This document shows positions 6,251-28,752 of a stretch of 64,000 nt of DNA, piece after piece. The stretch is from an uncultured Actinomycetes bacterium. GTDB taxonomy: Bacteria; Actinomycetota; Thermoleophilia; UBA2241. The stretch lies in assembly GCA_963767005.1 (NCBI GenBank), contig CAVYCN010000008.1:32001-96000 (forward strand), given 5' to 3'. The notes beneath the pieces are model-generated. The model was given only the letters and a program-made list of their open reading frames with translations. It made no database searches and was not told the origin of the DNA. Position 1 is the first letter of the stretch; every line of letters begins with the position of its first letter. A program made the position numbers and the translations under genes.

Positions 6251-7714
6251 CTACGGCAGCCCGGCGACGACGTGCTCGAGCAGCCGGATGAGAGGCGAGG
6301 GGTAGACGCCGAAGAACAGCACGGCGGCGACCACGACGGCGAGGGTCGAGGGGCCGGCGAGCCGGCCGGCGGCTGTGGCCAGGGGCGGCAGCGCCGCCGC
6401 GGCGTCTGCTTCGAGCGGCTTCTGCACGTACATGGCGACGACGATCCGCGTGTAGTAGTAGAGGCCGACGGTGCTCGTCGACACGAGCACGATGAGCAGC
6501 CACCACAGGTTCGAGCCGGCGCCGGCCGTCACCACGTAGAACTTGGCGAGGAAGCCGGCCGTCAGCGGGATGCCGGCCAGCGAGAACAGCACCGCGGCGA
6601 AGGTGCCGGCGAGCAGCGGCCGGCGGGCGCCGAGGCCGCGGTAGTCGTCGATCCGCTCGGCGTCGCGGCCGTCGGGGCCGGACAGCTCGGCGACGACGCC
6701 GAAGGCGCCCAGCGTGGTCGCGAAGTAGGCGACGAGGTAGAAGAGCACGGCGACCGCCGCCGTGCGGCCGAGGGCGAGGAAGGCGACCAGGATGTAGCCG
6801 AGGTGAGCGATCGACGAGTAGGCGAGCAGCCGCTTGACGTTGGTCTGCAGGAGCGCGAGCAGGTTGCCGGCCACCATCGACGCGGCGGCGATCGCGGCGA
6901 AGATCACCCAGACGGTGTCGTGCGGCGCGAGCGTCACGTGACGGAAGTAGCGCAGCAGGAGCGCCACCATGGCGCCCTTCGAGACCGTCGCGACGAAGGC
7001 GGTGACCGGCGCCGGCGCGGCCTGGTAGATGTCGGGCGTCCACATGTGGAACGGTACGACGCCGAGCTTGAAGCCGATCCCCACGATGATCAGGGCCAGG
7101 CCGCCGATCAGCACCTCGGTCTCGCCGGCGCCGCCGGTCACGTGCAGGCCGGCGAGCCCGCTCAGGCTCATCGTGCCGGTCTCGGCGTAGACGAGCGCCA
7201 TGCCGAAGAGCAGGAACGCGGCGGTGGCGGCCGCCAGCACGAGGTACTTGACGCCGGCCTCGATGAACTCGGGACGCTTGCGCGGGTAGGCGATCAGCGT
7301 GTAGAGCGAGACCGAGAGCACCTCGAGGCCTAAGAAGAACGAGGCGAAGTGGGTCGAGGCGACCAGGGCGGCGCCCCCGAGCGTGGCGAGCAGCAGCAGC
7401 GTGTAGTAGTCGTGGGGCCGCTCGCCGCGGCGCTCGAGGTAGCCGTACGACAGCAGCACGACGCCGGCCGTGGTGGCCGCGAGCAAGCCGATGAAGAACA
7501 GGGTGTAGTCGTCGAGCAGCAGCAGAGGAGTCACCTGCCGGTCGGCGCGCGTGGCCGCGACCGGCAGCATGGCGACCGTCCAGGCGAGGCCGGCGAGCGT
7601 GAGCCCTACAGTGAGCCGGTGGCTGCGGTGGAAGGTGCTGGCGACCATCACGATCACCGGCGACAGCGTGAGCGCGATGAAGGGCAGCAGGGTGACGGCG
7701 TCGGCGGGCTTCAC
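6251..7714 (-). CDS. nuoN: NADH-quinone oxidoreductase subunit N
   Basis: EAGVKY, FKLGVVPFHMWTPDIYQAAP, KRLLAYSSIAH, SLAGIPLTAGF. Confidence 0.93.
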   Translation of the reverse strand: MKPADAVTLLPFIALTLSPVIVMVASTFHRSHRLTVGLTLAGLAWTVAMLPVAATRADRQVTPLLLLDDYTLFFIGLLAATTAGVVLLSYGYLERRGERPHDYYTLLLLATLGGAALVASTHFASFFLGLEVLSVSLYTLIAYPRKRPEFIEAGVKYLVLAAATAAFLLFGMALVYAETGTMSLSGLAGLHVTGGAGETEVLIGGLALIIVGIGFKLGVVPFHMWTPDIYQAAPAPVTAFVATVSKGAMVALLLRYFRHVTLAPHDTVWVIFAAIAAASMVAGNLLALLQTNVKRLLAYSSIAHLGYILVAFLALGRTAAVAVLFYLVAYFATTLGAFGVVAELSGPDGRDAERIDDYRGLGARRPLLAGTFAAVLFSLAGIPLTAGFLAKFYVVTAGAGSNLWWLLIVLVSTSTVGLYYYTRIVVAMYVQKPLEADAAAALPPLATAAGRLAGPSTLAVVVAAVLFFGVYPSPLIRLLEHVVAGLP

Positions 7715-9279
7715 TGCGGCGCTCCGGTGTCCGACCCGGTGGGCTCGGTCGCCACGCCCGGACCGGCGGGGCGGTCGGCGGCGGACGCCGCCGGGGCGTT
7801 GCGCACGGCGTGCTGCTGCAGGGCGGTCAGGCTGGGTCGCACGGCGTTGAAGATCGGCTGGGGGTAGACGCCGAGCCAGAGCAGCGGCGTCGCCATGGCC
7901 GCCAGCATGACGCCCTCGGCCGGCGAGAGGTCCTTCATGACCACGGCCGGGGTCTCGCGCCCCTGGAAGACGCGCTGCACGATCCACAGCGAGTAGACGG
8001 TGGCGGCCACCAGGCCGACCGCGCCCAGCACGGTGGCCGGTTCGCTCACGCGCCAGGTGCCGAGGAGGATGAGGAACTCGGCCACGAAGTTGCCGAGGGT
8101 GGGCAGGCCGAGCGAGGCCAGGGCGAAGACGAGAGCCGCCGCGCCCATGCGCGGCGCGGTGATCCAGAGGCCGCCCATCTTCTCCATGTCGCGGGTGTGC
8201 AGGCGGTCCTGCATGAGGCCGACGATGGCAAACAGGGCGCCGGTCGAGAAGGCGTGGCAGACGATCTCGAGCACCGCGCCCTGCAGGGCGAGCGAGTTCC
8301 AGGCGAAGATCGCGAGCAGCACGAAGCCCATGTGACTGACGCTCGTGTAGGCGACCAGGCGCTTGAGGTCGCGCTGGGCGAAGGCGAGCACGGCGCCGTA
8401 GAGGATGCCGAGCACGGCGAGCGCCATGAACAGCGGCGCCAGGCGGAAGGCGGCGTGCGGGAACAGCGGCACCATGAAGCGGATCATCCCGTAGGCGCCG
8501 ATCTTGATGAGCAGCCCGGCGAGCACGAGGCTGCCGGCGGTCGGCGCCTGCGTATGGGCGTCGGGCAGCCAGGTGTGCAGCGGCACGGCCGGCAGCTTGA
8601 CGGCGAAGGCGGCGAAGAAACCGAGCAGCAGCCAGGTGGCGGTGGCCGTCGACAGGTGCGTGCCGAGCAGGCGCAGGTAATCGAAGGTGTAGACGCCCGT
8701 CTGGCGGCCGTGGATGACGTAGAGCGCGATGATCGCGACCAGCATGAGCAGGCCGCCGATCTGGGTGAACAGGAAGAACTTGATCGCCGCGTAGACGCGC
8801 CGCTCGTGGCCCCAGAGCGCGATCAGGAAGTACATCGGCACGAGCATCATCTCGAACAGGAAGTAGAAGAGGAACAGGTCGAGGGCGGTGAACACGCCGA
8901 CCAGGGCGGCGATCGTCCAGAGCAGCATGAAGTGGAAGAAGCCGACGCGCTCGGTGACCTCGTGCCACGACGACAGCACGGCCAGCAGGCCCAGCGCGTA
9001 GCAGAGCGTGACGAGCAGCAGGCTGAGGCCGTCGGCCGCCAGGAAGAAGCTGATGCCGAGCTGCGGCACCCAGCTCGCGTGCACGCTGACCACGAAGGGG
9101 CCGTGCGCGGCGATGCTCAGGGCGTGGCCTTTCAGCGCCCACTCGACGACCGTGGCGACCAGGCCGGCGCCCATGGCGAGCGCCGACACCCAGCGGGCGA
9201 CGTCGGGGCGCCGGCGGCCGGCGATCCAGGCGACGACGCCGGCGACGAAGGGCCAGGCGAGCAGCGCGACGAGGATCAT
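7711..9279 (-). CDS. nuoM: NADH-quinone oxidoreductase subunit M
   Basis: FEMMLVPMY, AVKLPAVPLHTWLPDAH, LKRLVAYTSVSHMG. Confidence 0.95.
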   Translation of the reverse strand: MILVALLAWPFVAGVVAWIAGRRRPDVARWVSALAMGAGLVATVVEWALKGHALSIAAHGPFVVSVHASWVPQLGISFFLAADGLSLLLVTLCYALGLLAVLSSWHEVTERVGFFHFMLLWTIAALVGVFTALDLFLFYFLFEMMLVPMYFLIALWGHERRVYAAIKFFLFTQIGGLLMLVAIIALYVIHGRQTGVYTFDYLRLLGTHLSTATATWLLLGFFAAFAVKLPAVPLHTWLPDAHTQAPTAGSLVLAGLLIKIGAYGMIRFMVPLFPHAAFRLAPLFMALAVLGILYGAVLAFAQRDLKRLVAYTSVSHMGFVLLAIFAWNSLALQGAVLEIVCHAFSTGALFAIVGLMQDRLHTRDMEKMGGLWITAPRMGAAALVFALASLGLPTLGNFVAEFLILLGTWRVSEPATVLGAVGLVAATVYSLWIVQRVFQGRETPAVVMKDLSPAEGVMLAAMATPLLWLGVYPQPIFNAVRPSLTALQQHAVRNAPAASAADRPAGPGVATEPTGSDTGAPQ

Positions 9280-9349: not shown

Positions 9350-11236
9350 TCATCGCAGCACCACGAACAGGACGCCTACGGCGACGCCCAGGCCGACGAC
9401 GAACACGTAGGAGCGCACGAGACCGTTCTGCGTGGCCGACAGGCCGCGCCAGCCGGCCCGGGTGAGGCGCGCGAGGGCGGCCACGGGCGGGTCGAAGAGG
9501 TCGCCCCTGCTCACGCGCGCGAACCACAGGAAGGGCACCTCGAACGCGTAACGGTAGAGGGTGTCGAAGCCCCAGCCGGCCAGGAAGAAGCGCGCGGCAA
9601 ACGACGTCTCGGCCTCGGCGCGCTCCTGGCGGCGGCGCTCGTAGAGCAGCCAGCCGAGGCCGATGCCGGCGACGGCGATCACACCGGGCAGGTACACCGT
9701 CCAGGCGTCGGCGGCCAGGCCGGCGTGGCGCAGCGCCGCCTCGGGCAGCACCGGCGCGAGGAACTTGTCGAGCGCCTGGATGTGCGCCCAACCGCGCGGG
9801 ACGTCGATCAGGCCGGCGACCACGGAACCCACGGCGAGCACATACAGCGGCAGCCTGATCGCGAGGCCGGTGCGAAAGCCGGGCCGCGGCTCGGTGCGCA
9901 CGGGGCCGAAGAACACCGTAAAGACGGCGCGGAACGAGTAGAGGCCGGTGAGCAGGGAGCCGACCAGGCCGCCTGCCCACAGCCAGGCGCTGCCCTGCGT
10001 GGACTGCAGGGCGCGGTCGATGATGAGGTCCTTGCTGTAGAAGCCGGCGGTCACGATCGGCAGGGCCGACAGGGCGGCGGCGCCGATCAGGAAGGTCCAG
10101 AAGGCCAGGGGCAGCCGCGTGCGCAGGCCGCCCATCCTGAAGATCTCGTGCTCGTCGTCCATGGCGTCGATCACGACGCCGGCCGACAGGAACAGCAGCG
10201 CCTTGAAGAAGGCGTGGGTGATGAACATGAACACGCCGGCCGACCAGGCGCCGACACCCAGGGCGAGGAACATGTAGCCCACCTGGCTGACCGTCGAGTA
10301 GGCAAGGATGCGCTTGAGGTCGACCTGGAACAGGGCGCTCACACCCGCGTAGAGCAGGGTCGCCGCGCCGATCACGGCGACCGTGGTGCGGGCCGCCGGC
10401 GCGAGGTCGAAGAGCAGGTTGGTACGAGCCACGAGGTAGACGCCCGCGGTGACCATGGTCGCGGCGTGGATGAGGGCGCTGACGGGCGACGGGCCGGCCA
10501 TGGCGTCGGGCAGCCAGGTCTGCAGAGGAAGCTGCGCCGACTTGCCGACCGCGCCGCCCAGCAGCAGCAGGGCGGCGGCGACCGGCAGGGCGGAACCGTG
10601 CGCCCAGGTGGCCGCCGCGCGATGCATGAGCGGCTGGATCTGCAGCGTGCCGAGCTGCGTGTACAGCAGGAACAGCCCGACGATCAGCGCGGTATCGCCG
10701 ACACGGGTGACGACGAACGCCTTGCGGGCCGCGTAGCCGTTGTACCAGTGCTTGTACCAGAAGCCGATCAGCAGGTAGCTGCACAGGCCGACGCCCTCCC
10801 AGCCCAGGTAGAGCAGCAGCAGGTTGTCGGCCAGCACGAGCACGAGCATGAAGCCCACGAAGAGGTTCATGTAGGTAAAGAAGCGGGCGTAGCCGTCGTC
10901 CGCGGCCATGTGCTCCACCGAGTAGAGGTGGATGAGGAAGCCCACGCAGGTGACGATCAGGATGAAGCAGATCGCGAGCGGATCGAGGTAGAGGGCGACC
11001 TGCACCTTGAGGCCGGCCACGCTGAACCAGGTCCACAGGGCCTGGTCGAAGGCGTGGCCGGCCGGCGGCGCGGCGATGAAGTCGAGCGAGACGGCGAGCG
11101 CGACGAGCGCCGCGAGGCCGACCGAGCCGGCGCCCACCAGGGCCACGCCGCGCTGCGGCAGGCGGCGCCCGCCGAGGGCCAGCACGGCGAAGCCGGCGAA
11201 GGGCAGCAGAGGCACGAGGAAGAGGGCGTGCAGCAT
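9350..11236 (-). CDS. nuoL: NADH-quinone oxidoreductase subunit L
   Basis: GWEGVGLCSYLLIGFW, GKSAQLPLQTWLPDAMAGPSPVSALIHAATMV, HAFFKALLFL. Confidence 0.95.
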   Translation of the reverse strand: MLHALFLVPLLPFAGFAVLALGGRRLPQRGVALVGAGSVGLAALVALAVSLDFIAAPPAGHAFDQALWTWFSVAGLKVQVALYLDPLAICFILIVTCVGFLIHLYSVEHMAADDGYARFFTYMNLFVGFMLVLVLADNLLLLYLGWEGVGLCSYLLIGFWYKHWYNGYAARKAFVVTRVGDTALIVGLFLLYTQLGTLQIQPLMHRAAATWAHGSALPVAAALLLLGGAVGKSAQLPLQTWLPDAMAGPSPVSALIHAATMVTAGVYLVARTNLLFDLAPAARTTVAVIGAATLLYAGVSALFQVDLKRILAYSTVSQVGYMFLALGVGAWSAGVFMFITHAFFKALLFLSAGVVIDAMDDEHEIFRMGGLRTRLPLAFWTFLIGAAALSALPIVTAGFYSKDLIIDRALQSTQGSAWLWAGGLVGSLLTGLYSFRAVFTVFFGPVRTEPRPGFRTGLAIRLPLYVLAVGSVVAGLIDVPRGWAHIQALDKFLAPVLPEAALRHAGLAADAWTVYLPGVIAVAGIGLGWLLYERRRQERAEAETSFAARFFLAGWGFDTLYRYAFEVPFLWFARVSRGDLFDPPVAALARLTRAGWRGLSATQNGLVRSYVFVVGLGVAVGVLFVVLR

Positions 11237-11237
11237 G

Positions 11238-11546
11238 TCAGCCTCGCATCCTGTTCGCGGCGTCGATGTCGAGCGAGCCGAAGGCACGCCGGAACAGCAG
11301 CGCCAGCGCGAGGCCCACGGCCACCTCGGCGGCCGCCATGGCGAGGATGAAGATGAACATGACCTGGCCGTCGGGGCGGCCCCAGCGCGAGCCGGCCACG
11401 ACGAAGGCCAGGCCGGAGGCGTTCAGCATGATCTCGATCGAGGCCAGCACGAAGATCAGGTTGCGGCGCACGAGCACGCCGGTCAGGCCGACCAGGAACA
11501 GGGCGGCGGCCAGGTAGAGGCCGTACTGGAAGGGCACGTGGGCCAT
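11238..11546 (-). CDS. nuoK: NADH-quinone oxidoreductase subunit K
   Basis: [27 protein letters not shown]. Confidence 0.95.
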
Positions 11547-12169
11547 CAGGCATCCCTCCCCACGGCCTGCCGCAGCGGCTCGCCGGGCCGCGGCGGTTCG
11601 CCGGGCCGCGGCGTTTCGCCCGGCCGCGGCGGCTCGACGAACTGCGCCTCGCCGCCGCGCACCCGCTCGAGCTCCGGCTCGCGCTGGCGCTGGCCGAGGT
11701 GACGAGCGCCGATCAGGGCGGCGAGCAGCAGCGTCGAGGCCAGCTCGACGCCGATCGCATAGGGCCCGTAGAGGGCGACGCCGACCGCGCGGGGCGGCAC
11801 CGCGTGCACGCCGGTGTGGGCCGCCGGACCGGTCGAGATCGCCAGGGCGAGCTCGACGAGCAGGGCGACGGACAGCAGGCCGGGGCCGAGGAACGAGATC
11901 GGCCGCAGGCGCGCGGGCTCGTCGCCCTCGGCCTGGCGACCGACGTTCAGGAGCATCACCGTGAACAGGAAGAGCACGATGATGGCGCCGGCGTAGATGA
12001 TCACCTCGAGGGCCGCGACGAACGGCGCGCCGAGGGTGTAGAAGACGACCGCCACGGCGAGCAGCGACACGACCAGATAGAGCAGCGCGTGGATCGTGTC
12101 GCGGCGCGTCACGACGAGCAGCGTCGAGACGAGCGCGACGGCGGCGGCCAGGTAGAAGACGACGGTCAC
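11546..12169 (-). CDS. nuoJ: NADH-quinone oxidoreductase subunit J
   Basis: [34 protein letters not shown]. Confidence 0.93.
11579..11632 (-). repeat. 3 x 18-bp in-frame tandem repeat (xPRPGE) in the NuoJ tail
   Basis: [18 protein letters not shown] at the C-terminus. Confidence 0.8.
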
Positions 12170-12182: not shown

Positions 12183-12695
12183 TCACGGCAGCAGCCGCTT
12201 CGGATCGTACGGCGGGGCCTCGTGCTCGGCCTCGCCGGTCGCCTTGCCGCCGATGGCGAGGCCGGCGATCCGGTAGAAGTCGTAGTCGTGGTACTTGCCG
12301 GTGCCCGCGATCAGCAGGTCTTCCTTCTCGTAGACCATGTTGGCGCGCACGTACTCGCTCATCTCGAAGTCTGGGGTGAGCTGGATGGCGTAGGTCGGGC
12401 AGGCCTCCTCGCAGTAGCCGCAGAAGATGCAGCGCGAGAAGTTGATGCGAAACCACTCGGGGTAGCGCCGGCCGTGCTCGTCCTGCGTAGCCTGCAGCGC
12501 GATGCAGTCGACGGGGCAGGCCACGGCGCACAGGTAGCAGGCCACGCAGCGCTCGCCGCCGTCGGGGTCGCGCGACAGGATGATGCGCCCCTTGAAGCGC
12601 GGCGGGTGGTAAGCCATCTCCTTGGGGTACTCGACCGTGTCGCTGCGCCGGAACAGGTGCAAAAAGACGATCCACAGGCCGCGCAGCAGGCTCAT
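12183..12695 (-). CDS. nuoI: NADH-quinone oxidoreductase subunit I
   Basis: Two CxxCxxCxxxCP ferredoxin motifs ([24 protein letters not shown]). Confidence 0.95.
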
Positions 12696-12741: not shown

Positions 12742-13761
12742 TCATCTCTGCACCGCCAGCACGATCGCGCCGGTGACGGCGAGGTTGGCGAGCGAGATCG
12801 GCAGAAGGATCTTCCAGCCGAGCTCCATGAGCTGGTCGTAGCGCGGCCGCGGATAGGTGGCGCGCACGAGGATGAAGAAGGCGATGAAGGCGAACGTCTT
12901 GATCAGGAACCAGACGAAACCGGGCAGCACAGGCCCGAGCCAGCCGCCGAAGTAGAACGTCGCGATGAGCGCCGAGATGAGCGTGATCCCCATGTACTCG
13001 CCGACGAAGAACATGCCGAACTTCATGCCGGAGTACTCGGTGTGATAGCCGGCGACGAGCTCGCTCTCAGCCTCGACCAGGTCGAACGGGATGCGGCGCG
13101 TCTCGGCGAAGCCGGCCAGCAGGAACACGACGAAGCCGGGGAACTGGGGCACGATGTACCACAGGCCGCGCTGGCCCGCGACGATGTCGTTCAGGCTGAA
13201 CGAGCCGGCGAGCAGCACCACGCCGGTGAGCGCGAGACCCATGAAGACCTCGTAGCTGATCATCTGGGCGGCCGCTCGCAGGCCGCCGATCACCGAGTAC
13301 TTGCTGTGCGAGGCCCAGCCGGCCAGGGCCACCGAGTAGACGCCGAACGACGACATCGCCAGGAAGTAGAGCAGGCCGACGTTCATGTTCGCGACCACGA
13401 CGGTGTGGTTGACCGGCACGACGGCGAAGCCGAGCAGCACCGAGAGCACGATGATGGCCGGCGCGGCCACGAAGAGCGCGCGGTCGGCAAAGGGCGGGAC
13501 CCAGTCCTCCTTCGTGAAGATCTTGATCATGTCGGCGACCGGCTGCAGGAGCCCGGCCGGTCCTACCCGGTTGGGGCCCAGGCGGTCCTGGAACAGGCCC
13601 AGGAGGCGGCGCTCCATCCAGATGAGGAAGGCCGCGACGTTGAGCGCGCCGAGCAGCACGATGAGCACCACCACGACCTTCCAGAGGTCCTCGGCCCAGG
13701 CCGCGACGCCGAGCGGCGCGGCAGCGAGGACACGGGCGAGCGGCAAGGCGAGGTCAGGCAT
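12742..13761 (-). CDS. nuoH: NADH-quinone oxidoreductase subunit H
   Basis: ERRLLGLFQDRLGPNRVGP, GGLRAAAQMISYE, PFDLVEAESELVAGYHTEYSG. Confidence 0.95.
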   Translation of the reverse strand: MPDLALPLARVLAAAPLGVAAWAEDLWKVVVVLIVLLGALNVAAFLIWMERRLLGLFQDRLGPNRVGPAGLLQPVADMIKIFTKEDWVPPFADRALFVAAPAIIVLSVLLGFAVVPVNHTVVVANMNVGLLYFLAMSSFGVYSVALAGWASHSKYSVIGGLRAAAQMISYEVFMGLALTGVVLLAGSFSLNDIVAGQRGLWYIVPQFPGFVVFLLAGFAETRRIPFDLVEAESELVAGYHTEYSGMKFGMFFVGEYMGITLISALIATFYFGGWLGPVLPGFVWFLIKTFAFIAFFILVRATYPRPRYDQLMELGWKILLPISLANLAVTGAIVLAVQR

Positions 13762-16573: not shown

Positions 16574-16574
16574 G

Positions 16575-20223: not shown

Positions 20224-20224
20224 G

Positions 20225-20875: not shown

Positions 20876-23349
20876 AGCAGGTACACCACGATGAGGATGG
20901 CGATCCAGACGGCATCGACGAAGTGCCAGTAGTAGATCGCCGACTCGACCATGCCGGGGGTGCCGGTGCCGCGCGCGATCGCTGCGGCGGGACCCTCGCC
21001 GGCCGGCACGACGCGACGTGTGCGATCGCCGGCCTGCCGGAAGAGCAGGTAGACGAGCAGCAGGAGCCCCACGGTGACGTGGGCGCCGTGCAGGCCGGTC
21101 AGGGTGAAGAACGACTCACCGGTGAGGCCGCTCGAGAGGCCGAAGCCGGCGTGCGTGTACTCCCAGCCCTGGCCGCCCAGGAAGACCACGCCCAGGATCA
21201 TGGTGACGACGAGGTGGAAGCGGAACCAGCCGATGCGGTCCTTGCGGTAGCTCGTCAGGGCGTAGTGGGCGAAGATCCCGCTCGACATGAGGATGACCGT
21301 GTTGACGATGGGCAGCGTGAGCGGCAGCCGGCCCGACGTCGTGTTCAGCGTGACGAAGTTGTCGTGGATGCGCAGGTGCAGGTCGGCCGCCAGCAGCGCG
21401 CCGAACAGCACGACCTCGGAGCCGATGAAGGTGAGCGTGCCGGCGCCGAGGGCGGTGAAGCGCTGGCCGGGCACGACCGGTGGCTGGGGGACCGTCCAGC
21501 GCGCCGACACCCAGAGGGCGGCCAGGACGAGCAGCAGGGCGATGCCGATGAACGACACGACCAGGCTGGTGAGCAGGCCGACGCCCACGACGACCGCGGC
21601 GAGCGCCGTGACCAAGGGCAGCTTCGTCCAGTGGTCGGCGTGCGGCGGCGGCGCGTGGAGGGCGGCCACCTCGGCGGCTCGTCGGGCCGCCGGCGACGTG
21701 GTGTCGAGCGCCGGGGCGCCGGACTGGCGGGCGCGCTTCATGTCGAACAGCGGACGCTCGCTTGTGATCACCGGCAGCTCGTAGGTGAAGTTGTCCTCGG
21801 GGGGCGGTGAGCTCGTCGCCCACTCGAGTGTCCAGGCATCCCAGGGGTCGTCGCCGGCCGGCTCGCCGGCGACGAGGCTGCGCACGACGTTGACCATGAA
21901 GACGACCATGGCCGCGCCGATCGTGAAGGCGCCGATCGCCGAGACGAGCTCGAGCGTCGTCCAGCCGATGTTCGCGGGGTAGGTATAGATGCGCCGCGGC
22001 GCGCCCATGAGGCCGAGCGCGTACATGGGCATGAAGGTCAGCAGGAAGCCGACCAGGATCACGGCGAAGTGGATCTTGCCGAGGCGGTCCGACAGCATCC
22101 GGCCAGAGAACTTCGGGAACCAGTAGTAGAAGGCCGCAAAGCCGATGAACACGGTGCCGCCGAACAGCACGTTGTGCAGGTGGCCGACGATGAACATGCT
22201 GTCGTTGGCCTGCCAGTCGAAGGGCACCGAGGCCTGCAGCACGCCGGTGATGCCGCCGATCGTGAAGGTCGCGATCATGCCGCAGGCGAAGAGCAAGGGG
22301 GTCTTCAGGCGCAGGCTGCCGCCCCACATCGTGGCGAGCCAGTTGAAGATCTTCACGCCGGTGGGCACGGCGATGATCATGCTGGTGGCCGCCATGATGG
22401 CGTTGAAGTAGCTGGGCAGGCCGGTCGCGAACATGTGGTGGCCCCACACGAGGAAGCCGATGAAGCCGATCGCGGCGAGGCTGATGATCATCGCCGAGCG
22501 CCCGAACAGCGGCTTGCGCGAGAACACCGGCACGATCTCGCTCATCATGCCGAAGGCCGGCAGGATGAGGATGTAGACCTCGGGGTGGCCGAAGAACCAG
22601 AACAGGTGCTGCCAGATGATGGGGTCGCCGCCGCGCGCCGGATTGAACCAGCCCGTGTGGTGGTAGCGGTCGAGGTAGAGCAAGCCGGCCGCCACGGTGA
22701 GGCTGGGGAACGCGAAGAGGATGAGCAGCGAGTTGACGAACGTGGCGATGCAGAGCAGCGGCATGCGGCGGAAGCTCATGCCGGGGGCGCGCAGGCGCAG
22801 CATGGTCATGATGAAGTTCACGGCGCCGGCGATCGACGAGACGCCGAGCAGCAGCAGCGCCACGATCCACAGATCGACGCCGCGCGGCGAGAAGGCGCGC
22901 TCGGTGAGCGGCGCATAGCTGAACCAGCCGGTGTTGAGCAGATCGCCGTTGAAGACGCCCGAGTAGAACAGGATGCCGCCGAACAGGAACAGCCAGTAGC
23001 TGAGCGCGTTCAGGCGCGGGAAAGCCATGTCGCGGGCGCCGATCATGATCGGCACGAGGTAGTTGGCAAAGCCGATCAGCATGGGCATGGCAAACAGGAA
23101 GACCATGGTGGTGCCGTGCACCGAGAAGGCCTCGTTGTACTGCTCGGGGGTGAGCACCTTCAGGCCGGGCAGCATGGTCTGCGTGCGCATCGTGATGGCG
23201 ATGCACATGCCGATCAGAAAGAAGACGAGCGACGTCGTCATGTACTGCTTGCCGACGTGCTTGTGGTCGGTGCCCATGAGCCAGGCGGCCAGGCCGCGCG
23301 GCTCTTCGCCGACGAGGGCGACGTCGTGGGGCAGGGTGATGTCCGTCAT
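20872..23349 (-). CDS. ctaD: Cytochrome c oxidase subunit I fused to subunit III (A1-type heme-copper oxidase)
   Basis: [17 protein letters not shown]; C-terminal [17 protein letters not shown] and YWHFVDAVW are subunit III motifs. Confidence 0.92.
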
Positions 23350-24368
23350 CTCAGCTCATTCAGGTAGGCGACGATCTCGCTCACGATCTGCGGCGTGAGC
23401 GGCACGTCGGGCATGCGCGTGCCGGGCTTCACGCCCTGCGGGTCGGCTATCCAGCGCGTCAGGTTCGCCGGGGTGTTGGTGAGGGTGACGGCGGCGATCG
23501 TGCTGCGGCTCGCGAGGTGCGTGAGGTCGGGGCCGAACGTGCCGTGCAGGCTGGTGCCGCGGATGGTGTGGCAACTGGCGCAGGGCAGGCGCGTCATGGC
23601 CGCCTCGCCGGCGATCGCCTGCGTCCCGGTGGCCGTGACGGCAGGCTTGAGCTGGTCGTGGAACCAGGTCGAGAAGGCGGCCGGCGACTCGACGTAGACC
23701 AGGAAGTGCATGTGGGCGTGCTGGGCGCCGCAGAAATCGGCGCACACGCCCAGGTACCTGCCGGGGGTCACCGGCAGGATCGTCAGGTAGTTCACGTGGC
23801 CCGGGATGAGCTGGATCTTGCCGGCGATCTGCGGGCACCAGAAGCTGTGGATGACGTCGGCCGACAGCAGGTCGAGCCTGACCGTCTGGTCGGCCGGGAT
23901 GTGGATCTCGTTCGCGGTCGCGAAGTCGGCGCCCGCGTAGCTGACCTGCCACCACCACTGGTGACCGGTCACCGTGAGCTGCACCGGGTCGGCGGGGCCG
24001 ACGAGCCGTCCGGTGGTCTGCATGGTGAGGCTGAACAGGACGACCACGATGATCGCCGGGATCACCGTCCACACCGCCTCGATCGTCGTGTTGCCGTGCA
24101 CCTGGCTGGCCTCGCGACCGGGACGCTCGCGGAACCTGATAAGCACGAGCGCGAGCAGTGTCCAGACGGTGATCAGCACGCCGGAGAGGATGGCGAACAT
24201 GGTGATGGTCAGCACCTTGATGTCGTGGGCGCTCGCGCCGTGGGTCTGGAACACGTTCGGCGAGACCTGCGTGCAGCCGGCGAGGCCGGCCGTCAGGGCG
24301 ACGAGGACGGCCGCGCGCAGCACGACCGGGCGCAGAGCGTGGACGCGGCGTGCGGGCTCGCGCGTCAT
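23346..24368 (-). CDS. ctaC: Cytochrome c oxidase subunit II with C-terminal cytochrome c (caa3-type)
   Basis: Lipobox LAGC, GHQWWW, DVIHSFW, CuA motif CADFCGAQHAHM, heme motif CASCH, PGTRMP. Confidence 0.92.
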   Translation of the reverse strand: MTREPARRVHALRPVVLRAAVLVALTAGLAGCTQVSPNVFQTHGASAHDIKVLTITMFAILSGVLITVWTLLALVLIRFRERPGREASQVHGNTTIEAVWTVIPAIIVVVLFSLTMQTTGRLVGPADPVQLTVTGHQWWWQVSYAGADFATANEIHIPADQTVRLDLLSADVIHSFWCPQIAGKIQLIPGHVNYLTILPVTPGRYLGVCADFCGAQHAHMHFLVYVESPAAFSTWFHDQLKPAVTATGTQAIAGEAAMTRLPCASCHTIRGTSLHGTFGPDLTHLASRSTIAAVTLTNTPANLTRWIADPQGVKPGTRMPDVPLTPQIVSEIVAYLNELR

Positions 24369-25288
24369 CGCGTCACCAGCCTTTCGATGATCATGGCCAG
24401 AAGGAGCACGGCGAGGTACGGTCCCGAGAGCTTGTGCAGCAGCCACGCGGTCGTCCGGCGGCGACGGCCGGCCAGGTCGCCTGCGAGGGCGAGAAAGACG
24501 AGGCCGGCCGGCGCGGCGACCAGCAGGTAGCCCGTCCCGTACATCCCTATCACCACCGGCGTCAGGCTGAGGGCTACCAGGGCGGCGGCGGCGGCGAGGA
24601 TCATGCCCGCCGCCGCGCGCTCGCCCAGGGCGACGGGCGGCGTGGGGACGCCCGAGGCCAGGTAGTCGTCCTGCAGCGCGAAGGCCAGCGCCCAGAAGTG
24701 GGGCGGCGACCAGACCGCGATCAGGGCGCAGAGGAAGACGATGTCAGTCGTCAGGCCGCCGCCGGCCGCCGTCCAGCCGATCAGGGCCGGGAACACGCCG
24801 GCGAGGCCGCCGGGCAGGGAGCTGAGCGCGGTGCGCGGCTTGATGAGCAGCGTGTAGACGACCACGTAGTAGACGACGCCGGCGGCCGCGAACAGGGCGG
24901 CGGCGGCGCCGCCGCAGCTCCACACCGCGCCGACGCCGGCGGCTATCGCGGCGAGGCCGGCGAGGAGCGCGGTCCGCGGGTCGAGCGTGCCGTCGGCCGT
25001 CGGCCGACGGCGGGTGCGCGACATGACGGCGTCGAGGTCGTGCTCGCAGGCGTTGTTGAGCAGGGCGGCGCCGCCCACGGTGAGCGCCGCCGCGGCGACG
25101 ATCGCGACCGTGCTGGCCGGCCCGCGCGGGCCGGCCAGCACGGTCGCGACGAGCACGGTGAGGGCGAAGAGCGCGACGATGCGCGGCTTGGCGGCGCGCA
25201 CGAGCGCGCCGCCAAGCCGCGCATCGCGGTGCAGGCGACCGTTGCGCAGGTCGAGGCGCGGCGCGGCGTGGTCGAGCGCCCAGCTCAA
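24365..25288 (-). CDS. ctaB: Heme o synthase (protoheme IX farnesyltransferase)
   Basis: KPRIV, DLDAVMSRTRRRP, YTLLIKPRT, WSPPHFWALA; TTG start with GGAG RBS. Confidence 0.9.
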   Translation of the reverse strand: MSWALDHAAPRLDLRNGRLHRDARLGGALVRAAKPRIVALFALTVLVATVLAGPRGPASTVAIVAAAALTVGGAALLNNACEHDLDAVMSRTRRRPTADGTLDPRTALLAGLAAIAAGVGAVWSCGGAAAALFAAAGVVYYVVVYTLLIKPRTALSSLPGGLAGVFPALIGWTAAGGGLTTDIVFLCALIAVWSPPHFWALAFALQDDYLASGVPTPPVALGERAAAGMILAAAAALVALSLTPVVIGMYGTGYLLVAAPAGLVFLALAGDLAGRRRRTTAWLLHKLSGPYLAVLLLAMIIERLVTR

Positions 25289-26679
25289 AACGCCGGCTCC
25301 TTCACGATCACCGGCGCGACGGCCGCGTGGCGCCGGCGGAACACGGCCCAGGCGATCAGGCCGACCACAAACGGCAGGCCGAGCGTGAGGCCCTGCATGA
25401 CCGCGACGACGGTCGGCAGGCTCCAGTGGAAGTGCACGGCGTACACGTCGTCGCCGCCGGCGATCAGCAGCATGACGAGGAACGTGACGAGACCGAAACC
25501 GATCGCCGTGCGCCCCGGCCGGTCGCGCGGCGTCTGCAGCAGGTTGTGGAGGTCGTCGTCGCGCGTGATGAAGGCGTCGAGCCACGGCCACGAGAACAGG
25601 AAGCCGGCGATCACGCCGGGCAGCACGGCGGCCGGCCAGAACAGGCCGGGCAGCAGGAAGCCGCCGATGTGGATGTCCGAGGAGGGCATCAGGCGCACGG
25701 CGCCCTCGAGCCAGCCGGTGTACCAGTCGGGCTGGGCGAAGCTCGTCGAGTTCCACGGCGTGTACGGTCCGTACAGCCAGACCGGGTTGATCTGGATGAA
25801 GCCGCCCATCGCCGTGAGCAGGCCGGCGAGCATGAGCATGAAGCCGCTCGTGCGCAGCGCGTAGGCCGGCACGAGCGGCGTGCCGACGATCACCCGGTCG
25901 CTGCGCTTGCGGCCGCGGTACTGCGTGTGGCGCTGGACCCAGAGCAGACCGAGGTGGGCGCCGAGGACGCCCGCGATGGCAGCGGGGACGAGCAGGATGT
26001 GCAGGGCGTAGATGCGCGGGATCAGGCTGTTCGTCGGGAAGCCGCCGCCGAAGAGCAGCGAGGCCATGTTGGGCCCGATCAGGGGCACCGACTGGGTGAT
26101 CGAGTAGGCGATGCGCAGGCCGGTGCCCGACAGCAGGTCGTCGGGCAGCGAATAGCCGAAGACGCCGTTCAGGATCACGAGGATCAGCATGGTCAGGCCG
26201 AGCAGCCAGTTGAGGCGCCGCGGGCGCCGGTAGGCGCCGGTGAAGAACATGCGCAGCAGGTGCAGCACGATGGCCGCGGCGAACACGAGCGCGGCCCAGT
26301 GGTGCACCTGCCTGACGAGCAGGCCGGCGCGCACGTCGAAGCTGAGGCGCAGGACCGAGTCGTAGGCCTGGGACACGACCGCGCCGTGGAGCGGCTGGTA
26401 GCGGCCGGTGTAGACGGTCGGCGCCACCGAGGCCTTGAAGAACATCGTGAGGTAGATGCCGGTCGCGATCAGGATGATGAAGCAGTAGAGGCCGATCTCG
26501 CCGAAGAAGAACGACCAGTCGTCGGGGAAGATGTGGCGCAGCTCGCGACGGATGAGGCCGCCGCCGCCCGTGGTCGAGTCGAGCCAGGCCGCCACCCGCC
26601 GGTAGCGGCCGCGCGGCAGGCGGAACGAGCGCGCGAGCGAGCGGTCGAGCCGGTCGCCTGCTGTGGGCTCGTCAGGCAT
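25285..26679 (-). CDS. qcrB: Cytochrome bcc complex cytochrome b subunit
   Basis: RQVHHWAA, GYSLPDDLLSGTGLRI, HILLVP, QPDWY. Confidence 0.93.
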   Translation of the reverse strand: MPDEPTAGDRLDRSLARSFRLPRGRYRRVAAWLDSTTGGGGLIRRELRHIFPDDWSFFFGEIGLYCFIILIATGIYLTMFFKASVAPTVYTGRYQPLHGAVVSQAYDSVLRLSFDVRAGLLVRQVHHWAALVFAAAIVLHLLRMFFTGAYRRPRRLNWLLGLTMLILVILNGVFGYSLPDDLLSGTGLRIAYSITQSVPLIGPNMASLLFGGGFPTNSLIPRIYALHILLVPAAIAGVLGAHLGLLWVQRHTQYRGRKRSDRVIVGTPLVPAYALRTSGFMLMLAGLLTAMGGFIQINPVWLYGPYTPWNSTSFAQPDWYTGWLEGAVRLMPSSDIHIGGFLLPGLFWPAAVLPGVIAGFLFSWPWLDAFITRDDDLHNLLQTPRDRPGRTAIGFGLVTFLVMLLIAGGDDVYAVHFHWSLPTVVAVMQGLTLGLPFVVGLIAWAVFRRRHAAVAPVIVKEPAF

Positions 26680-28342
26680 ACAGGTTCCAGAAGCCGGGGC
26701 CGATGGGCTCGTCGAAGTCGTGCTGGGCCACGAGAAAGCCGTCGGCGTCGATCGCGAGAGGAAGCTGGGGCAGCGGCCGCGAGGCCGGGCCGTGGACCGG
26801 GCGGCAGCCGTCGAGCAGGTCGAAGGTCGACTGGTGACAGGGGCAGAGCAGGACCTGGGCCTCGTCCTCGTACTGCGCGACGGCGCAGCCGGCGTGGGTG
26901 CAGACGCGCGAGTAGGCAAAGAAGCCGTCGGGGCTCCAGGACTCGCGACCGGGCAGCGGTGTGACACCGGCCAGGCGCACGAGCGCGACCTGCGAGTCGG
27001 CTGCGGCGGTGTGACCCTCGGGGAACGCGACGATGAAGCCGCCGCCCTGCAGCGCGTCGCTGCGGATGGGCTGGTTGTCGGGCGTGACGAGGCGGCGCCC
27101 CGGCCGCCATGCCGTCGAGTACAGGCCGCGCGACTTGGGGCCGAGGCCGCCGAGCAGCACGAGCTGGCTCAGGCCGACGACGCCGGCGGCGCTCACCAGC
27201 ACGCCCGTGAGGAACCGGCGCCGAGTGAGCACGCCGGCGCTGCGGGCGAGCTCGTCGCCCAGCGCCGCCGGCTCGTCGGGCTCTCCGGCCGCGGCCGCGA
27301 CGGCCGGCTCTGCCGGCAGCGGGTAGCGCCCGATCTCGACGTCGTCGCCCGAGAGGTCGCGGCCCCAATAGGCCAGGGCGAAGCCCAGGCCGAGGAAGGC
27401 GAGCGCGAGCGTGCCGCCGATCCGCGCGGTGTCGTTGCCGAGCACGAAGAGGACGACGAAGGCCACGGCTCCGCCGACGGCCACGAGCAGCGCGAGGCCG
27501 GCGGGCCACCCGGGCGCCGGCTGCTCGGCGCCGGCGGGCTCTGGCTTGACCTGCCCCTTGCCCCAGGCCAGCCACACGGTGAGCAGGATGAGCAGGCCGA
27601 GGCCGCCGGCGGCCGCGAAGCCCTCGGTCACCGGTCCGACGTAGCCGAGGCCCCAGCCACCGGGCGAAGCCGGCGACTCGAGGGTCTCGACGAACAGGGC
27701 GACCGACGCGGTCTGACGCACGTTGAACGTGGTGCCGGCGAAGATCGGCATGTTGCCGCGGCCGAGGATCATGGCGGCGATGGCCTCAGCCGCGGGGTAG
27801 TTGGAGAGGCGCGGCGCGTTGCGGCCCTGGCTCAGCGCGCCGCCGCGCCCGGTCGAGCTGTGGCAGCCCGAGCAGTAGAGGTGAAAGAGCTGCTGACCTT
27901 CGCCCACCGTGGCGTCGTGGGCCTGGGGCGCCGCGATCTGGGTGGCGACGTAGCCGGCGACCTCGTCGACCTGGACGGGTGAGAACTGCGGGAACGCCGG
28001 CATCTGGACGCCGCCGCGACGCACCATGCCGGCGACGAGGCTGGGAAAGGCGTCGGCCGCCTGGCTCGGCCCGATCAGGCCCTCGCCGTGGTCGCCGTGG
28101 CAGCCTGAGCAGTTCGCCGCGAAGATTGCGGCGCCCGGGCCCGCGGCCGGCGCGGTCGAGTCGGACGCGGCGCCGGCCAGGGGAGTGGCGGTGACCGCCG
28201 GGATAGGGCTGGACGAGGGCGACGCGGCCGCTGTGGGGCCGGCACTCGCCGCCCGCACGACGGCCGGCAGGACGATGGCGACGACCACCGCCACGACGAG
28301 CAGCAGCGCGGCGAGACGAAGGCGACCTGCGCGGCGCCGCAT
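26672..28342 (-). CDS. qcrCA: Fused diheme cytochrome c (QcrC) - Rieske protein (QcrA)
   Basis: Two CSGCH motifs, GGWGLGYVGPVTEG, then Rieske motifs CTHAGC and CPCHQS. Confidence 0.88.
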   Translation of the reverse strand: MRRRAGRLRLAALLLVVAVVVAIVLPAVVRAASAGPTAAASPSSSPIPAVTATPLAGAASDSTAPAAGPGAAIFAANCSGCHGDHGEGLIGPSQAADAFPSLVAGMVRRGGVQMPAFPQFSPVQVDEVAGYVATQIAAPQAHDATVGEGQQLFHLYCSGCHSSTGRGGALSQGRNAPRLSNYPAAEAIAAMILGRGNMPIFAGTTFNVRQTASVALFVETLESPASPGGWGLGYVGPVTEGFAAAGGLGLLILLTVWLAWGKGQVKPEPAGAEQPAPGWPAGLALLVAVGGAVAFVVLFVLGNDTARIGGTLALAFLGLGFALAYWGRDLSGDDVEIGRYPLPAEPAVAAAAGEPDEPAALGDELARSAGVLTRRRFLTGVLVSAAGVVGLSQLVLLGGLGPKSRGLYSTAWRPGRRLVTPDNQPIRSDALQGGGFIVAFPEGHTAAADSQVALVRLAGVTPLPGRESWSPDGFFAYSRVCTHAGCAVAQYEDEAQVLLCPCHQSTFDLLDGCRPVHGPASRPLPQLPLAIDADGFLVAQHDFDEPIGPGFWNLYA

Positions 28343-28752
28343 CACGACCCCCGGCGGCGGCGTTGCCGGCCGCTCGTGCCCCAGTCGAGGGCGCCGAGAC
28401 GCCACAGGTACACGAGGCCGGCCAGCAGCAGGACGATGAAGACGAGGGCCTCGACGTAGCCGCTCCAGCCGGCCTGCCGCAGGCCCACGGCCCAGGCGAA
28501 GATGAAGACGGCCTCAAGGTCGAAGATCACGAAGAAGACGGCGATCTCGTAGAACTCGATCGAGAAGTGGCGCGGCAGCGGACCGGCCGGCGGCAGACCC
28601 GACTCGTAGCGCTCGTCGGTGGTCAGCTCACGGTGCCGCTGGCCGAGGAGGCTGGAGACGACGACGATGCCCACGGTGATGACCGCGGCAAGCGCTGCGT
28701 ACACCAGAAAGGGCCATCCGGCTCCTGAGATGGCCACGACAGTCGACCCCAC
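28342..28752 (-). CDS. nuoA: NADH-quinone oxidoreductase subunit A
   Basis: YESG, FYEIAVFFVIFDLEAVFIFAW, GALDW. Confidence 0.93.
   Translation of the reverse strand: MGSTVVAISGAGWPFLVYAALAAVITVGIVVVSSLLGQRHRELTTDERYESGLPPAGPLPRHFSIEFYEIAVFFVIFDLEAVFIFAWAVGLRQAGWSGYVEALVFIVLLLAGLVYLWRLGALDWGTSGRQRRRRGS

Follow-up and report, generated by a model that had tools for sequence, protein, structure and literature searches.

Can a whole respiratory chain be gathered in one operon, with the genes of complexes III and IV lying inside the complex I cluster, and what would such an order mean for the cell? The question is raised by a 64,000-nucleotide stretch of DNA from an uncultured Actinomycetes bacterium (the window; host genome G000), in which one locus appears to encode a complete mitochondria-like electron transport chain. 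Our preferred reading, to which we assign a probability of about 0.62, is an intact NADH-to-oxygen chain, likely encoded by one coupled operon behind a predicted stress promoter, that would let a mostly anaerobic host respire or consume oxygen. In the literature searched, we found no earlier description of a qcr-cta block inside a nuo cluster. Every protein of the array belongs to a well-known family, which limits the surprise accordingly.

An eighteen-gene respiratory array on one strand

Profile HMMs, coordinates and cofactor motifs identified 18 intact genes, all on the minus strand, in the order nuoA-qcrCA-qcrB-ctaB-ctaC-ctaDE-nuoB-CD-E...N, bearing out the order and both overlapping borders of the original prediction. 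The array is 22.5 kb long; 11 of its 17 junctions overlap and the widest gap is 70 nt, the start of nuoG being uncertain. From nuoA to nuoB all six junctions overlap: the nuoA stop shares 1 nt with the qcrC ATG at 28342 (TGATG), the four junctions within the qcr-cta block overlap by 8, 4, 4 and 4 nt, and the ctaDE stop overlaps the nuoB GTG by 4 nt at 20872-20875 (GTGA). Instead of the canonical direct adjacency, 7.5 kb and five genes separate nuoA from nuoB. Single open reading frames encode qcrC-qcrA, ctaD-ctaE and nuoC-nuoD. For the 12 genes tested against two relatives, dN/dS was 0.09–0.45 throughout, and the NuoB amino terminus agrees with that of relatives in which nuoB directly follows nuoA. 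Beyond the end of the array, ppk2 (5265-6200, plus strand) converges on nuoN at a distance of 50 nt.

The junctions recur in independent assemblies

The window stems from a metagenome-type assembly and its contig carries a second nuo cluster, circumstances under which a misassembly could have fused two loci at nuoA and nuoB. This second cluster is, however, differently built and merely 27–51% identical, and the same order recurs in 11 other genomes from three genera and on 12 metagenome contigs. In eight of these genomes (G011, G008, G003, G005, G007, G004, G013 and G021), a single contig carries nuoA, the entire qcr-cta block and nuoB in this order; G009 shows both junctions across two contigs, and G001 and G010 show one junction apiece. 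In metagenomes, the 13 nearest relatives of this nuoA (75–93% identity) have qcrC as the next gene in 12 cases, the contig of the 13th ending there, and among the remaining 67 loci (50–59% identity) nuoB comes next in 58 while 9 end too early. The ctaDE-nuoB junction is furthermore crossed with zero mismatches by a 294-nt contig from run X1, which may be the source sample, and the nuoA-qcrC junction draws its support from the other assemblies. Fifteen sequencing runs each contained less than 20% of the window's words. With the same junctions present in independent assemblies and metagenome contigs, the predicted synteny held and we reject misassembly, the probability of which is practically nil.

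Composition of the three complexes

All 14 core complex I subunits are present. Besides nuoA (28342..28752; PF00507; 136 aa, three transmembrane (TM) segments) and nuoB (20225..20875; 216 aa), HMM matches identified nuoCD (18460..20223), nuoE (17956..18420), nuoF (16575..17963), nuoG (13754..16657), nuoH (12742..13761), nuoI (12183..12695; two 4Fe-4S motifs), nuoJ (11546..12169), nuoK (11238..11546), nuoL (9350..11236), nuoM (7711..9279) and, as the last gene of the array, nuoN (6251..7714). The fused NuoCD (587 aa) scores 866.3 against the NF008728 cut-off of 840 and has the E. coli-type chain 7awt_D as its best solved match, and the long NuoG carries the N7 motif CxxCxxxC-x27-C. By the NuoCD fusion, the NuoG form and the best solved match, we take complex I to be of clade-E type. 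Clade-E operons share the fused NuoCD, the long NuoG with N7 motif, a short NuoE and the A-B-CD-E...N order, whereas here five non-nuo respiratory genes intervene after nuoA. PMC4453560 describes clade E as frequently an additional isozyme, gained by horizontal transfer, in organisms that have another complex I, and ties it to anaerobic respiration in gammaproteobacteria; here, by comparison, it co-occurs near-strictly with complexes III and IV. A second-type nuoA is found in most genomes of the family. The same nuo type occurs in two further families of this class, where nuoA adjoins nuoB in all 16 genomes fetched, and the flanks read of these loci held no cta genes.

The qcrC-qcrA fusion (26672..28342) encodes 556 residues with two CxxCH heme motifs, an internal twin-arginine motif (RRRF) at residue 374 and the Rieske motifs CTHAGC/CPCHQS. 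Its two parts match actinobacterial models best, yet stay below the cut-offs (QcrC 123.5/200; QcrA 217.9/275). We found 27 more full-length fused homologues, and the twin-arginine pair is invariant in all 28 aligned fusions. Hydropathy indicates four TM segments, the last being the weakest, and a low-confidence AlphaFold model (pLDDT 48) has five long helices. According to PMC5449189, dual Sec/Tat actinobacterial Rieske proteins have an odd number of TM segments, with three- and five-TM forms, and a twin-arginine motif before the last. QcrCA, which also has a twin-arginine motif, may be a protein of this kind; between TM1 and TM2 it would additionally bear a diheme cytochrome c domain exported by Sec. 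The term "cytochrome c" is absent from the main text of that paper. That the fusion would need both Sec and Tat offers testable biochemistry.

The adjoining qcrB (25285..26679) encodes an actinobacterial-type cytochrome b of 464 aa with a PDWY motif (NF050120, 529.5 against a cut-off of 500). Solved mycobacterial and corynebacterial chains have 535–573 aa, the present protein being 71–92 aa shorter than the native-length ones (535–556 aa). The alignment runs to roughly position 436 of these structures, and the protein lacks the carboxy-terminal extension that contacts complex IV. On these sequence features, complex III is assigned to the actinobacterial bcc type without the QcrB tail. Judging from PMC8361435 and PMC9145763, the obligate III2IV2 (bcc-aa3) supercomplex of Mycobacterium and Corynebacterium shares with the present system a diheme QcrC, a multi-TM QcrA with internal twin-arginine motif, a QcrB above the NF050120 cut-off, an A1 oxidase, menaquinone, and an associated copper gene of CopC/CopD type (here in relatives). 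In contrast to that supercomplex, QcrC and QcrA are fused here, the QcrB tail is missing, the genes lie within a nuo cluster, CtaC carries its own cytochrome c, CtaD and CtaE are fused, a separate CtaF is absent, CtaA was not found, and cytochrome c would be matured via Ccm rather than Res: the Ccm system is present, and ResB was not found in G000.

The oxidase departs further from the actinobacterial pattern. CtaC (23346..24368) combines a CuA motif, a lipobox-like LAGC and a fused cytochrome c with CxxCH, and CtaDE (20872..23349; 825 aa) contains the six histidine ligands, the A1-type GHPEVY motif and intact D- and K-channel motifs. Matches to the actinobacterial Cta models stayed below cut-off; over their full lengths, the best solved matches are 2yev_B for CtaC and 2yev_A ("polypeptide I+III") for CtaDE, an entry we take to be the Thermus thermophilus caa3 oxidase. 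By these features, the oxidase is classed as caa3-type in architecture and Thermus-like, sharing the I+III fusion and the subunit II–cytochrome c fusion. Unlike in Thermus, the array holds no subunit IV gene and the oxidase is coupled to an actinobacterial bcc complex. Thermus, our positive control, also has the heme A synthase CtaA, whereas none of the 89 family genomes exceeded the PF02628 cut-off, a threshold that a very divergent synthase could escape (control positive in 7/14). The heme O synthase CtaB is present (24365..25288; 307 aa, TTG start; TIGR01473, 221.4 against a cut-off of 210.3), and neither DUF420 nor Sco was detected in G000. Since no heme A synthase was found, the oxidase is likely a heme O rather than an aa3 enzyme; more broadly, heme O or B is predicted as its cofactor. 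The label "aa3" of the original prediction is therefore unsupported, the architecture being caa3 rather than canonical actinobacterial bcc-aa3. A cytochrome c oxidase apparently made without heme A synthase or Sco is likewise open to biochemical testing.

Distribution and probable origin of the inserted order

Scoring 89 genomes of the family, we found all three complexes in 52, none in 33 and a discordant set in 4, so that the complexes occur together in 52 of the 56 genomes having any of them. Metabolic predictions change accordingly, the module being present in about 60% of family genomes and missing in about 40%. Of 55 genomes with this nuoA, 39 have a divergent arrangement, in which nuoA lies back to back with qcrC, 3 are tandem, 12 are inserted as in the window, and in one no qcr/cta genes were found. 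The assumption that such oxidase and bcc genes normally form separate loci fails within this family, where qcr/cta adjoin nuo in nearly every genome having them. The inserted arrangement spans three genera of one bacterial branch, which likely belongs to Thermoleophilia. In the genus of the window (g1), the module is missing from 2 of 12 genomes, including the 92% complete G006, which indicates that it is dispensable.

The junctions are conserved to different extents. The nuoA-qcrC overlap occurs in 9 of 10 relatives, the tenth keeping TGATG followed by a frameshift, and the ctaDE-nuoB overlap in 6 of 8 genus relatives, G009 and G004 having no in-frame overlap. The qcrC-qcrA fusion is present in all eight g1 relatives checked, the two genes being separate in other genera. 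Between ctaDE and nuoB, G013 and G021 carry a CopC-CopD gene, whose homologue in divergent genomes comes after ctaDE. The ctaB gene is reversed in G013, whereas G021 and g1 have it in forward orientation. Intermediate orders persist in living relatives, which differ in the arrangement (divergent, tandem or inserted), in the orientation of ctaB, in the presence of copCD and in whether qcrC and qcrA are fused. Natural series of this kind are rare, and this one lends itself to studying operon assembly and the gain and loss of aerobic respiration as one module in anaerobic lineages.

In an RpoB tree, the eight inserted-type genomes that have RpoB form one clade with the module-less G006 (UFBoot 100), branching as (G013,(G021,genus g1)) with the divergent G014 as sister. 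The qcr and cta trees likewise keep G013, G021 and g1 together. NuoB+NuoCD of g1, however, fall with those of tandem-type genomes, and the test rejects their grouping with G013 (AU p=0.0009); these gene trees comprised relatives only. This conflict implies that nuo genes were exchanged or that the order arose twice, and the history of the inserted order is not simply vertical.

Synteny and trees suggest that nuo and qcr-cta-copCD were already neighbours in the family, mostly in back-to-back orientation, and were inherited together as a single island. In the common ancestor of the three genera, the qcr-cta-copCD block would have moved between nuoA and nuoB, by one inverted transposition or two inversions, and stepwise tightening may have followed: ctaB turned to the common strand, copCD was dropped, and qcrC and qcrA became one gene. 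That the block lies behind nuoA would then most likely be a side effect of its having come under control of the promoter at the head of nuo, and not a sign of NuoA touching complex III. The array is best read as a module for oxygen respiration that is inherited as a whole and was consolidated downstream of the nuoA promoter. A duplication-loss route was rejected, the 1.4-kb gap of G013 and G021 containing copCD and no nuoA remnant. Contig breaks between nuoA and nuoB in several g10 assemblies gave no support for a hidden intermediate order, nuoB being the next gene after nuoA wherever the sequence could be followed (G044 and G055), and an order with nuoA reversed and nuoB after cta was seen in no locus read.

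Predicted promoter and probable transcription

About 34 nt before the nuoA start we predict a promoter, GGTT-N16-GGGTAG (28786..28811, minus strand), which presumably corresponds to the SigB/SigF consensus (GTTT-like -35, GGGTA -10, 15–17 nt spacer). Across the genome, a ribosome binding site and coding start follow G[GT]TT-N15-17-GGGTA in 8 of 16 matches, against 15 of 145 when the spacing differs (p=0.001 without the nuoA site); the counts are small, the spacing window was picked after seeing the data, and matches that overlapped each other entered the count twice. Hsp70, thioredoxin, a ferritin-like protein, YceI and KdpF are among the products encoded downstream of such sites, as are rplM and a pilin. 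A SigB/F/G-type factor is encoded in G000 and in 39 of 40 family genomes. We infer that a stress-type SigB/F-like promoter precedes nuoA; the motif is nearly absent from divergent-type upstream regions (2 of 28). A second, possibly ECF-type promoter is tentatively suggested by the upstream element GGAC-N18-GTT..CT (28844..28872, minus strand), conserved in 10 of 12 inserted-type versus 1 of 28 divergent regions, a circular comparison as the pattern was derived from the same sequences; genome-wide, no independent support was found. A conserved 5' hairpin before nuoA (GCCAGA-N6-TCTGGC) was dismissed, being missing from the predicted fold (z=+1.26).

Internal promoters or terminators would split the unit, and here the outcome favoured the original prediction. 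Two scans returned 5 terminator-like sites each, versus 2.2±1.6 and 2.8±1.7 in shuffles, all within coding sequence, and a sigma-70 consensus scan, covering this promoter type only, gave 1 and 0 sites; both kinds are at chance level. Internal promoters may still lie within coding sequence. The genes lie on one strand with short or negative gaps and are conserved in relatives, as in polycistronic units. The conserved overlaps, the chance-level terminator and sigma-70 sites, the near-perfect co-occurrence, the anaerobe-type host and the conserved, predicted SigB/F-like promoter together give good indirect support for co-expression, and the array is likely read as a single message and co-expressed as an oxygen-response module. 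Equal transcription would mismatch the usual stoichiometries of the complexes, complex III being a dimer.

The locus might instead be a dense cluster of separate units, with internal promoters before qcrC and nuoB setting complex I apart from III-IV and the order being a neutral inversion accident. A message of 22.5 kb is long, the order is labile (three orders in the family; cta split from qcr in G077 and G089), and overlapping stop/start codons are often the default in GC-rich genomes, nuoA and nuoB too overlapping in most divergent genomes. We nevertheless hold this alternative to be very improbable: complex I assembly needs nuoA expressed together with nuoB-N, there is zero non-coding space before qcrC or nuoB, the terminator-like sites are near shuffle level and in coding sequence, and the subsequent turn of ctaB onto the strand of its neighbours is in keeping with selection for read-through.

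Possible function in a probably anaerobic host

Among near-complete family genomes, 35 of 40 encode an [FeFe]-hydrogenase small-subunit domain and 32 of 40 cytochrome bd; G000 has an mqn gene of the futalosine pathway, and Wood-Ljungdahl ACS was not found in it. This gene content suggests that the host likely lives mostly without oxygen. The assembly does not include 16S rRNA. Electrons would pass from NADH through complex I to menaquinone, QcrB/Rieske and the diheme QcrC, and onward via the CtaC cytochrome c and CuA to O2, with proton pumping at three sites, no need for a soluble cytochrome c, translational coupling along the array and heme O as the likely cofactor.

Alternatively, the co-expressed module could solely remove oxygen, shielding hydrogenases and other oxygen-sensitive enzymes while NADH is burnt without aerobic growth. 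According to PMC4383621, Desulfovibrio vulgaris, an anaerobe, has a heme-O cytochrome c oxidase, cc(b/o)o3, beside a bd oxidase, and its oxygen reductases provide an analogy: here CtaA, Sco and DUF420 were not found, a likeness to the cc(b/o)o3 enzyme. The anaerobe-type gene set, the stress-type promoter context and the patchy, dispensable distribution point the same way. Differing from the D. vulgaris enzyme, the present oxidase is arrayed with its own complexes III and I, and a proton-pumping complex I and Q-cycle complex III would be superfluous for scavenging, yet both are found together with the oxidase in 52 of the 56 genomes that contain any of the three. Most family genomes encode cytochrome bd, the usual scavenger, in any case, and the oxidase is A1-type with its channel motifs intact. 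A1 oxidases are a low-affinity class. We thus consider pure scavenging unlikely and retain the respiratory module as the preferred reading.

A further possibility is that the gene order mirrors a physical I-III2-IV respirasome, interleaving coupling the co-translational assembly of one menaquinone-linked supercomplex. The conserved junction overlaps, the QcrC-QcrA and CtaD-CtaE fusions as signs of pressure toward fixed stoichiometry and the joint gain and loss of the three complexes would fit, and PMC8115037 reports respirasomes that include complex I in Paracoccus denitrificans. However, 42 relatives have the same complexes in a divergent or tandem arrangement; by eye, no extra segment is seen in the NuoA of inserted-type genomes; nuoB/CD were apparently swapped against qcr/cta with the order kept, which argues against a tightly co-evolved interface; and QcrB lacks the tail of solved supercomplexes. 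Two database NuoA-QcrC fusions, P0033 and P0050, are likely frameshift artefacts: each is a singleton, both are out of frame downstream, and in one NuoA lapses into low-complexity sequence before TM3. We regard a respirasome as rather improbable, gene order being its sole support. Similarly doubtful is the bolder version, in which the array is the blueprint of a heme-O respirasome (I-III2-IV) that uses menaquinone and is put together co-translationally when stress induces its single message. In that version anaerobic lineages would hand the array on to one another as a plug-in cassette for aerobic respiration, insertable into any clade-E nuo operon; the conserved nuoA and nuoB flanking the qcr-cta block could let such a cassette insert itself by double crossover. 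A search for a plasmid copy of this NuoCD returned 29 records, every one below 60% identity.

The P. denitrificans respirasome is assembled at the protein level from clade-A, ubiquinone-linked enzymes, and its genes lie in separate loci. Like the array, that system combines complex I with complexes III and IV into a single chain (PMC8115037), whereas here they are shown to be joined at the gene level alone, in a compact gene set for seeking a bacterial I-III-IV supercomplex.

Gene order and integrity of the respiratory array

ORF listing and HMM scans of the array region (6251–28752, minus strand) yielded 18 minus-strand genes in the order claimed by the original prediction, in which the genes for complexes III (qcr) and IV (cta) stand between nuoA and nuoB of complex I (nuo). 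With start codons picked from the sequence and that of nuoG uncertain, 11 of the 17 junctions overlap and the largest gap is 70 nt. Overlapping stop/start junctions had been claimed for both borders of the inserted block, and indeed each of the six junctions on the way from nuoA to nuoB is an overlap. Every motif checked that we take to mark a cofactor site is intact: QcrCA keeps both heme c sites and its Rieske ligands, QcrB the heme b histidines and PDWY, CtaC its CuA and heme c motifs, CtaDE the A1 and channel motifs, and complex I its Fe-S (N7 included) and FMN motifs. The GC content of the array is the same as that of its surroundings, and pairwise dN/dS values against two relatives were in the range of 0.09–0.45 for the 12 genes tested. 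Gene content, order and conservation are direct observations.

The host genome (G000) comprises 3.44 Mb on 19 contigs and is rated 100% complete, although its assembly includes no 16S rRNA gene. CtaDE, NuoB, NuoA and QcrCA served as queries against every one of the 89 genomes in the family, and the gene order was mapped in 53 genome stretches. The whole block between nuoA and nuoB was found on a single contig in eight genomes besides the host, whereas one further genome (G009) carries both junctions on two contigs and two others (G001, G010) one junction apiece, so that both the nuoA-qcr and the ctaD-nuoB junctions proposed for a synteny check recur in independent family assemblies. Among the best 80 of 366 confirmed metagenome matches, the 13 nearest relatives of this nuoA have qcrC next in 12 cases; for the 67 more distant ones nuoB comes next in 58 and the sequence ends too early in 9. 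The ctaDE-nuoB junction is crossed with zero mismatches by one contig of sequencing run X1, possibly the source sample itself. Misassembly was rejected, since the block order recurs in other family genomes and metagenomes and the X1 contig spans the ctaDE-nuoB junction. Two further runs (X2, X3), compared with window positions 19000–30000, contain a high-depth relative with contigs covering nuoB, ctaDE and qcr; an X2 contig joins ctaB on the opposite strand, reflecting another family member with reversed ctaB.

The array is real and lineage-wide, and represents known systems in a new variant arrangement. Full-text searches of the open-access literature found no earlier description of this order, lineage or kind of cluster. 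Respiratory genes lie beside nuo clusters in other taxa at four loci, none of them inside nuoA-nuoB. An Acidobacteriaceae locus (L089:1926-9107) has ctaC-ctaDE and a distant cytochrome b directly after nuoN, forming an independent nuo-oxidase cluster; three unrelated loci (L230, L285, L315) have a distant Rieske protein and/or cytochrome b 1.0–1.6 kb upstream of a clade-E nuoA. Early-branching actinobacterial supercomplexes were reportedly treated by Kao et al. in 2016 and may bear on the III-IV part. The survey of Spero et al. counts nuo genes as colocalised if fewer than 10 ORFs lie between them (PMC4453560), so that a case like this array could hide in its data set.

Co-inheritance and three gene orders

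Co-inheritance of the three complexes was observed directly: 52 of the 89 family genomes hold all three parts, 33 lack every one of them and 4 are discordant. The tally covers the nuoA and ctaDE types of the array together with qcrCA, leaves out the distant 41% oxidase of G017, and is given without a p-value because kin are not independent. Among the 55 genomes with this nuoA, 39 are divergent (nuoA back to back with qcrC), 3 tandem (qcr-cta-nuoA-nuoB) and 12 inserted, and one had no qcr or cta genes found. In 38 of the 39 divergent genomes the matches lie within 660 nt of each other, the remaining one (G014) having a spacing of 6.5 kb. The best titled CtaDE record, from an uncultured Thermoleophilia (L051), likewise carries the module in divergent order. 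A fused QcrCA 66% identical to that of the host falls in a protein cluster with a member labelled Thermoleophilia, and from these two records the host is probably of that class.

Outside the family, a class-wide sample of 351 genomes contained the fused NuoCD type in 16 genomes of two families, and nuoA adjoins nuoB in all 16. No cta gene was found upstream in these 16, with up to 16 kb read (less at contig ends), nor within 17 kb downstream of nuoN in the four checked. The linkage is thus a trait of the family, and the insertion that of one branch.

Further variants were observed. A record titled 'uncultured Bacteroidetes bacterium' (L052) holds the divergent form of the family's module at 40–67% identity, through a mislabelled title or transfer. 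Three genomes carry the module twice (G078, L139 and L140; G064, L143 and L144; G083), as real duplicates or bin contamination. A fourth order, with nuo and qcr divergent and ctaC-ctaDE inverted 7.5–10 kb away, is seen in G077 (L146) and G089 (L147).

Origin of the inserted order

In an RpoB phylogeny of 27 genomes (the host plus the 26 that gave RpoB out of 30 searched), the inserted-type genomes group as a single clade, (G013,(G021,g1)), with UFBoot 100, where g1 is the genus of the host. Its sister is the divergent G014 (support 87), and a separate clade (98) unites the tandem genomes with the remaining divergent ones. Stepwise intermediates are observed within the inserted clade. G013 and G021 carry a CopC-CopD copper gene (copCD) between ctaDE and nuoB, homologous to the gene after ctaDE in divergent genomes, unlike the tandem genomes, in which nuoA follows ctaDE. 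Judged by this arrangement, the inserted block most likely derived from the divergent form, bringing copCD along. The gene ctaB points forward in G021 and g1; in G013 it is reversed, as it is in the tandem and divergent genomes. In g1, copCD is missing from the array, the host having two copCD genes elsewhere, and qcrC and qcrA are fused in all eight relatives with the full region, being separate in all other genera read; 27 more full-length QcrC-QcrA fusions were found in the protein collection. The nuoB gene retained its original overlap start and amino terminus.

The qcr and cta trees group G013, G021 and g1 together (0.99, FastTree). In the trees of NuoB and NuoCD, G013 sits with G014 and genus g10, and g1 near the tandem type; a g1+G013 clade was rejected for NuoB and NuoCD (AU p=0.0009, LG+G4), in a test of 16 rows that left out the frameshifted G021 and for a group named after the trees were seen. 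G064 belongs to g10 by RpoB, yet its tandem module groups with genus g6. These phylogenies indicate exchange of some island genes among members of the family. That the inserted order arose twice would be a less parsimonious reading. As nuoA is the first nuo gene, a block landing just behind it would come under the nuo promoter with no gene broken, which would explain the site without invoking protein contact.

Properties of the encoded chain

NuoCD scores over the E. coli-type cut-off, with best structure matches of E. coli type. The features of clade-E complex I given in the Spero survey (PMC4453560) are present, and by sequence the array complex I is clade-E-like; its closest named relatives outside the family come from several phyla at 63–66% identity. 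In contrast to mycobacterial supercomplexes, where a long carboxy-terminal tail of QcrB covers the oxidase (PMC8361435), the array QcrB lacks this tail, although complex III is of actinobacterial type. The best solved match of the oxidase is 2yev, full length for both subunits.

The original prediction had spoken of bcc-aa3 genes, and the aa3 label is not supported here: none of the 89 family genomes has a heme A synthase match over the Pfam cut-off, against 7 of 14 controls. Heme A synthase is described to require O2, and heme O to be able to replace heme A in Bacillus oxidases (PMC9145763); a cc(b/o)o3 oxidase is present in D. vulgaris (PMC4383621). The array oxidase is a predicted heme-O enzyme. 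In QcrCA, the twin-arginine motif ahead of the last helix is invariant, and a low-confidence model shows five long helices; both would fit the dual Sec/Tat insertion outlined for actinobacterial Rieske proteins (PMC5449189). Electrons would flow from NADH via menaquinone, bcc and membrane-bound cytochromes c to O2.

Regulation

Within the array, neither terminator-like nor sigma-70-like sites exceeded chance expectation. The array would be read as one coupled transcript. The pattern GGT[TGC]-N16-18-GGGT[AG]G precedes nuoA in 10 of 12 inserted-type regions versus 2 of 28 divergent ones, a circular comparison as it was derived from these regions. In a separate, independent test across the host genome, 8 of the 16 matches to G[GT]TT-N15-17-GGGTA have an RBS and coding start behind them, versus 15 of 145 at other spacings; the enrichment without the nuoA site gave p=0.001, for a spacing window chosen post hoc and with overlapping matches counted twice. 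Slightly looser criteria gave nine sites, before nuoA, Hsp70, thioredoxin, a ferritin-like gene, yceI, kdpF, a SnoaL-like gene, rplM and a pilin. The motif before nuoA resembles what we take to be the SigB/SigF general-stress promoter consensus and is a predicted promoter of this kind; 39 of 40 family genomes encode a SigB/SigF-type sigma factor. Stress or oxygen may induce the array.

Divergent genomes have a different conserved element ahead of nuoA. In 21 of 28 divergent regions (e.g. L135, L163), TTGATA[CG]T[GC]AT followed by TGTTCTCTACCAT is highly conserved ~90–170 nt before nuoA, a likely promoter or regulator site; the TTGATA[CG]T[GC]AT element is absent from the host.

Second respiratory clusters and surroundings

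A second nuo cluster (C8:114304-129143, L322) lies outside the window on the same contig, ~53 kb from the array, with the order A-B-C-D-H-E-F-X-J-K-L-M-N and adjoining tatA. Here nuoA adjoins nuoB, C and D are separate, NuoF belongs to the long hydrogenase-B type, and the NuoG position is taken by a flavoprotein X (2Fe-2S, Fer4_20, FAD/NAD(P) oxidoreductase and Fer4). It may be an electron-bifurcating input module. The two complexes I would divide their labour. This second nuoA type is present in most family genomes. A second set of distant Rieske, cytochrome b and cytochrome c genes is located on another contig (C12:129100-131900; L323:7133-9862). The host also holds four [FeFe]-hydrogenase-domain matches, one of them beside HydF and a likely HydG, as well as cytochrome bd, a futalosine-pathway gene and a Ccm system; ACS, ResB, Sco and DUF420 were not found in it. 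In the 40 family genomes with a completeness of 90% or more, a hydrogenase small-subunit domain occurs in 35 and cytochrome bd in 32.

Directly upstream of the array lies an adenosine deaminase gene (28911-30044, minus strand), conserved among several members of g1, some of which have an MFS-type transporter in between; a PPK2 polyphosphate kinase gene (5265-6200, plus strand) converges on nuoN. At 1479-3887 (minus) and 1569-3731 (plus), long opposite-strand ORFs overlap with HMM matches in different parts, to an FAD-dependent pyridine nucleotide-disulphide oxidoreductase, possibly NDH-2-like, and an MTA/futalosine nucleosidase domain. The stretch 47000-60000 has a lower GC content (0.56–0.71, mostly <0.67) and is a possible island, and the ORFs at 51801-57344, one of 1083 aa, had no Pfam match at 1e-6.
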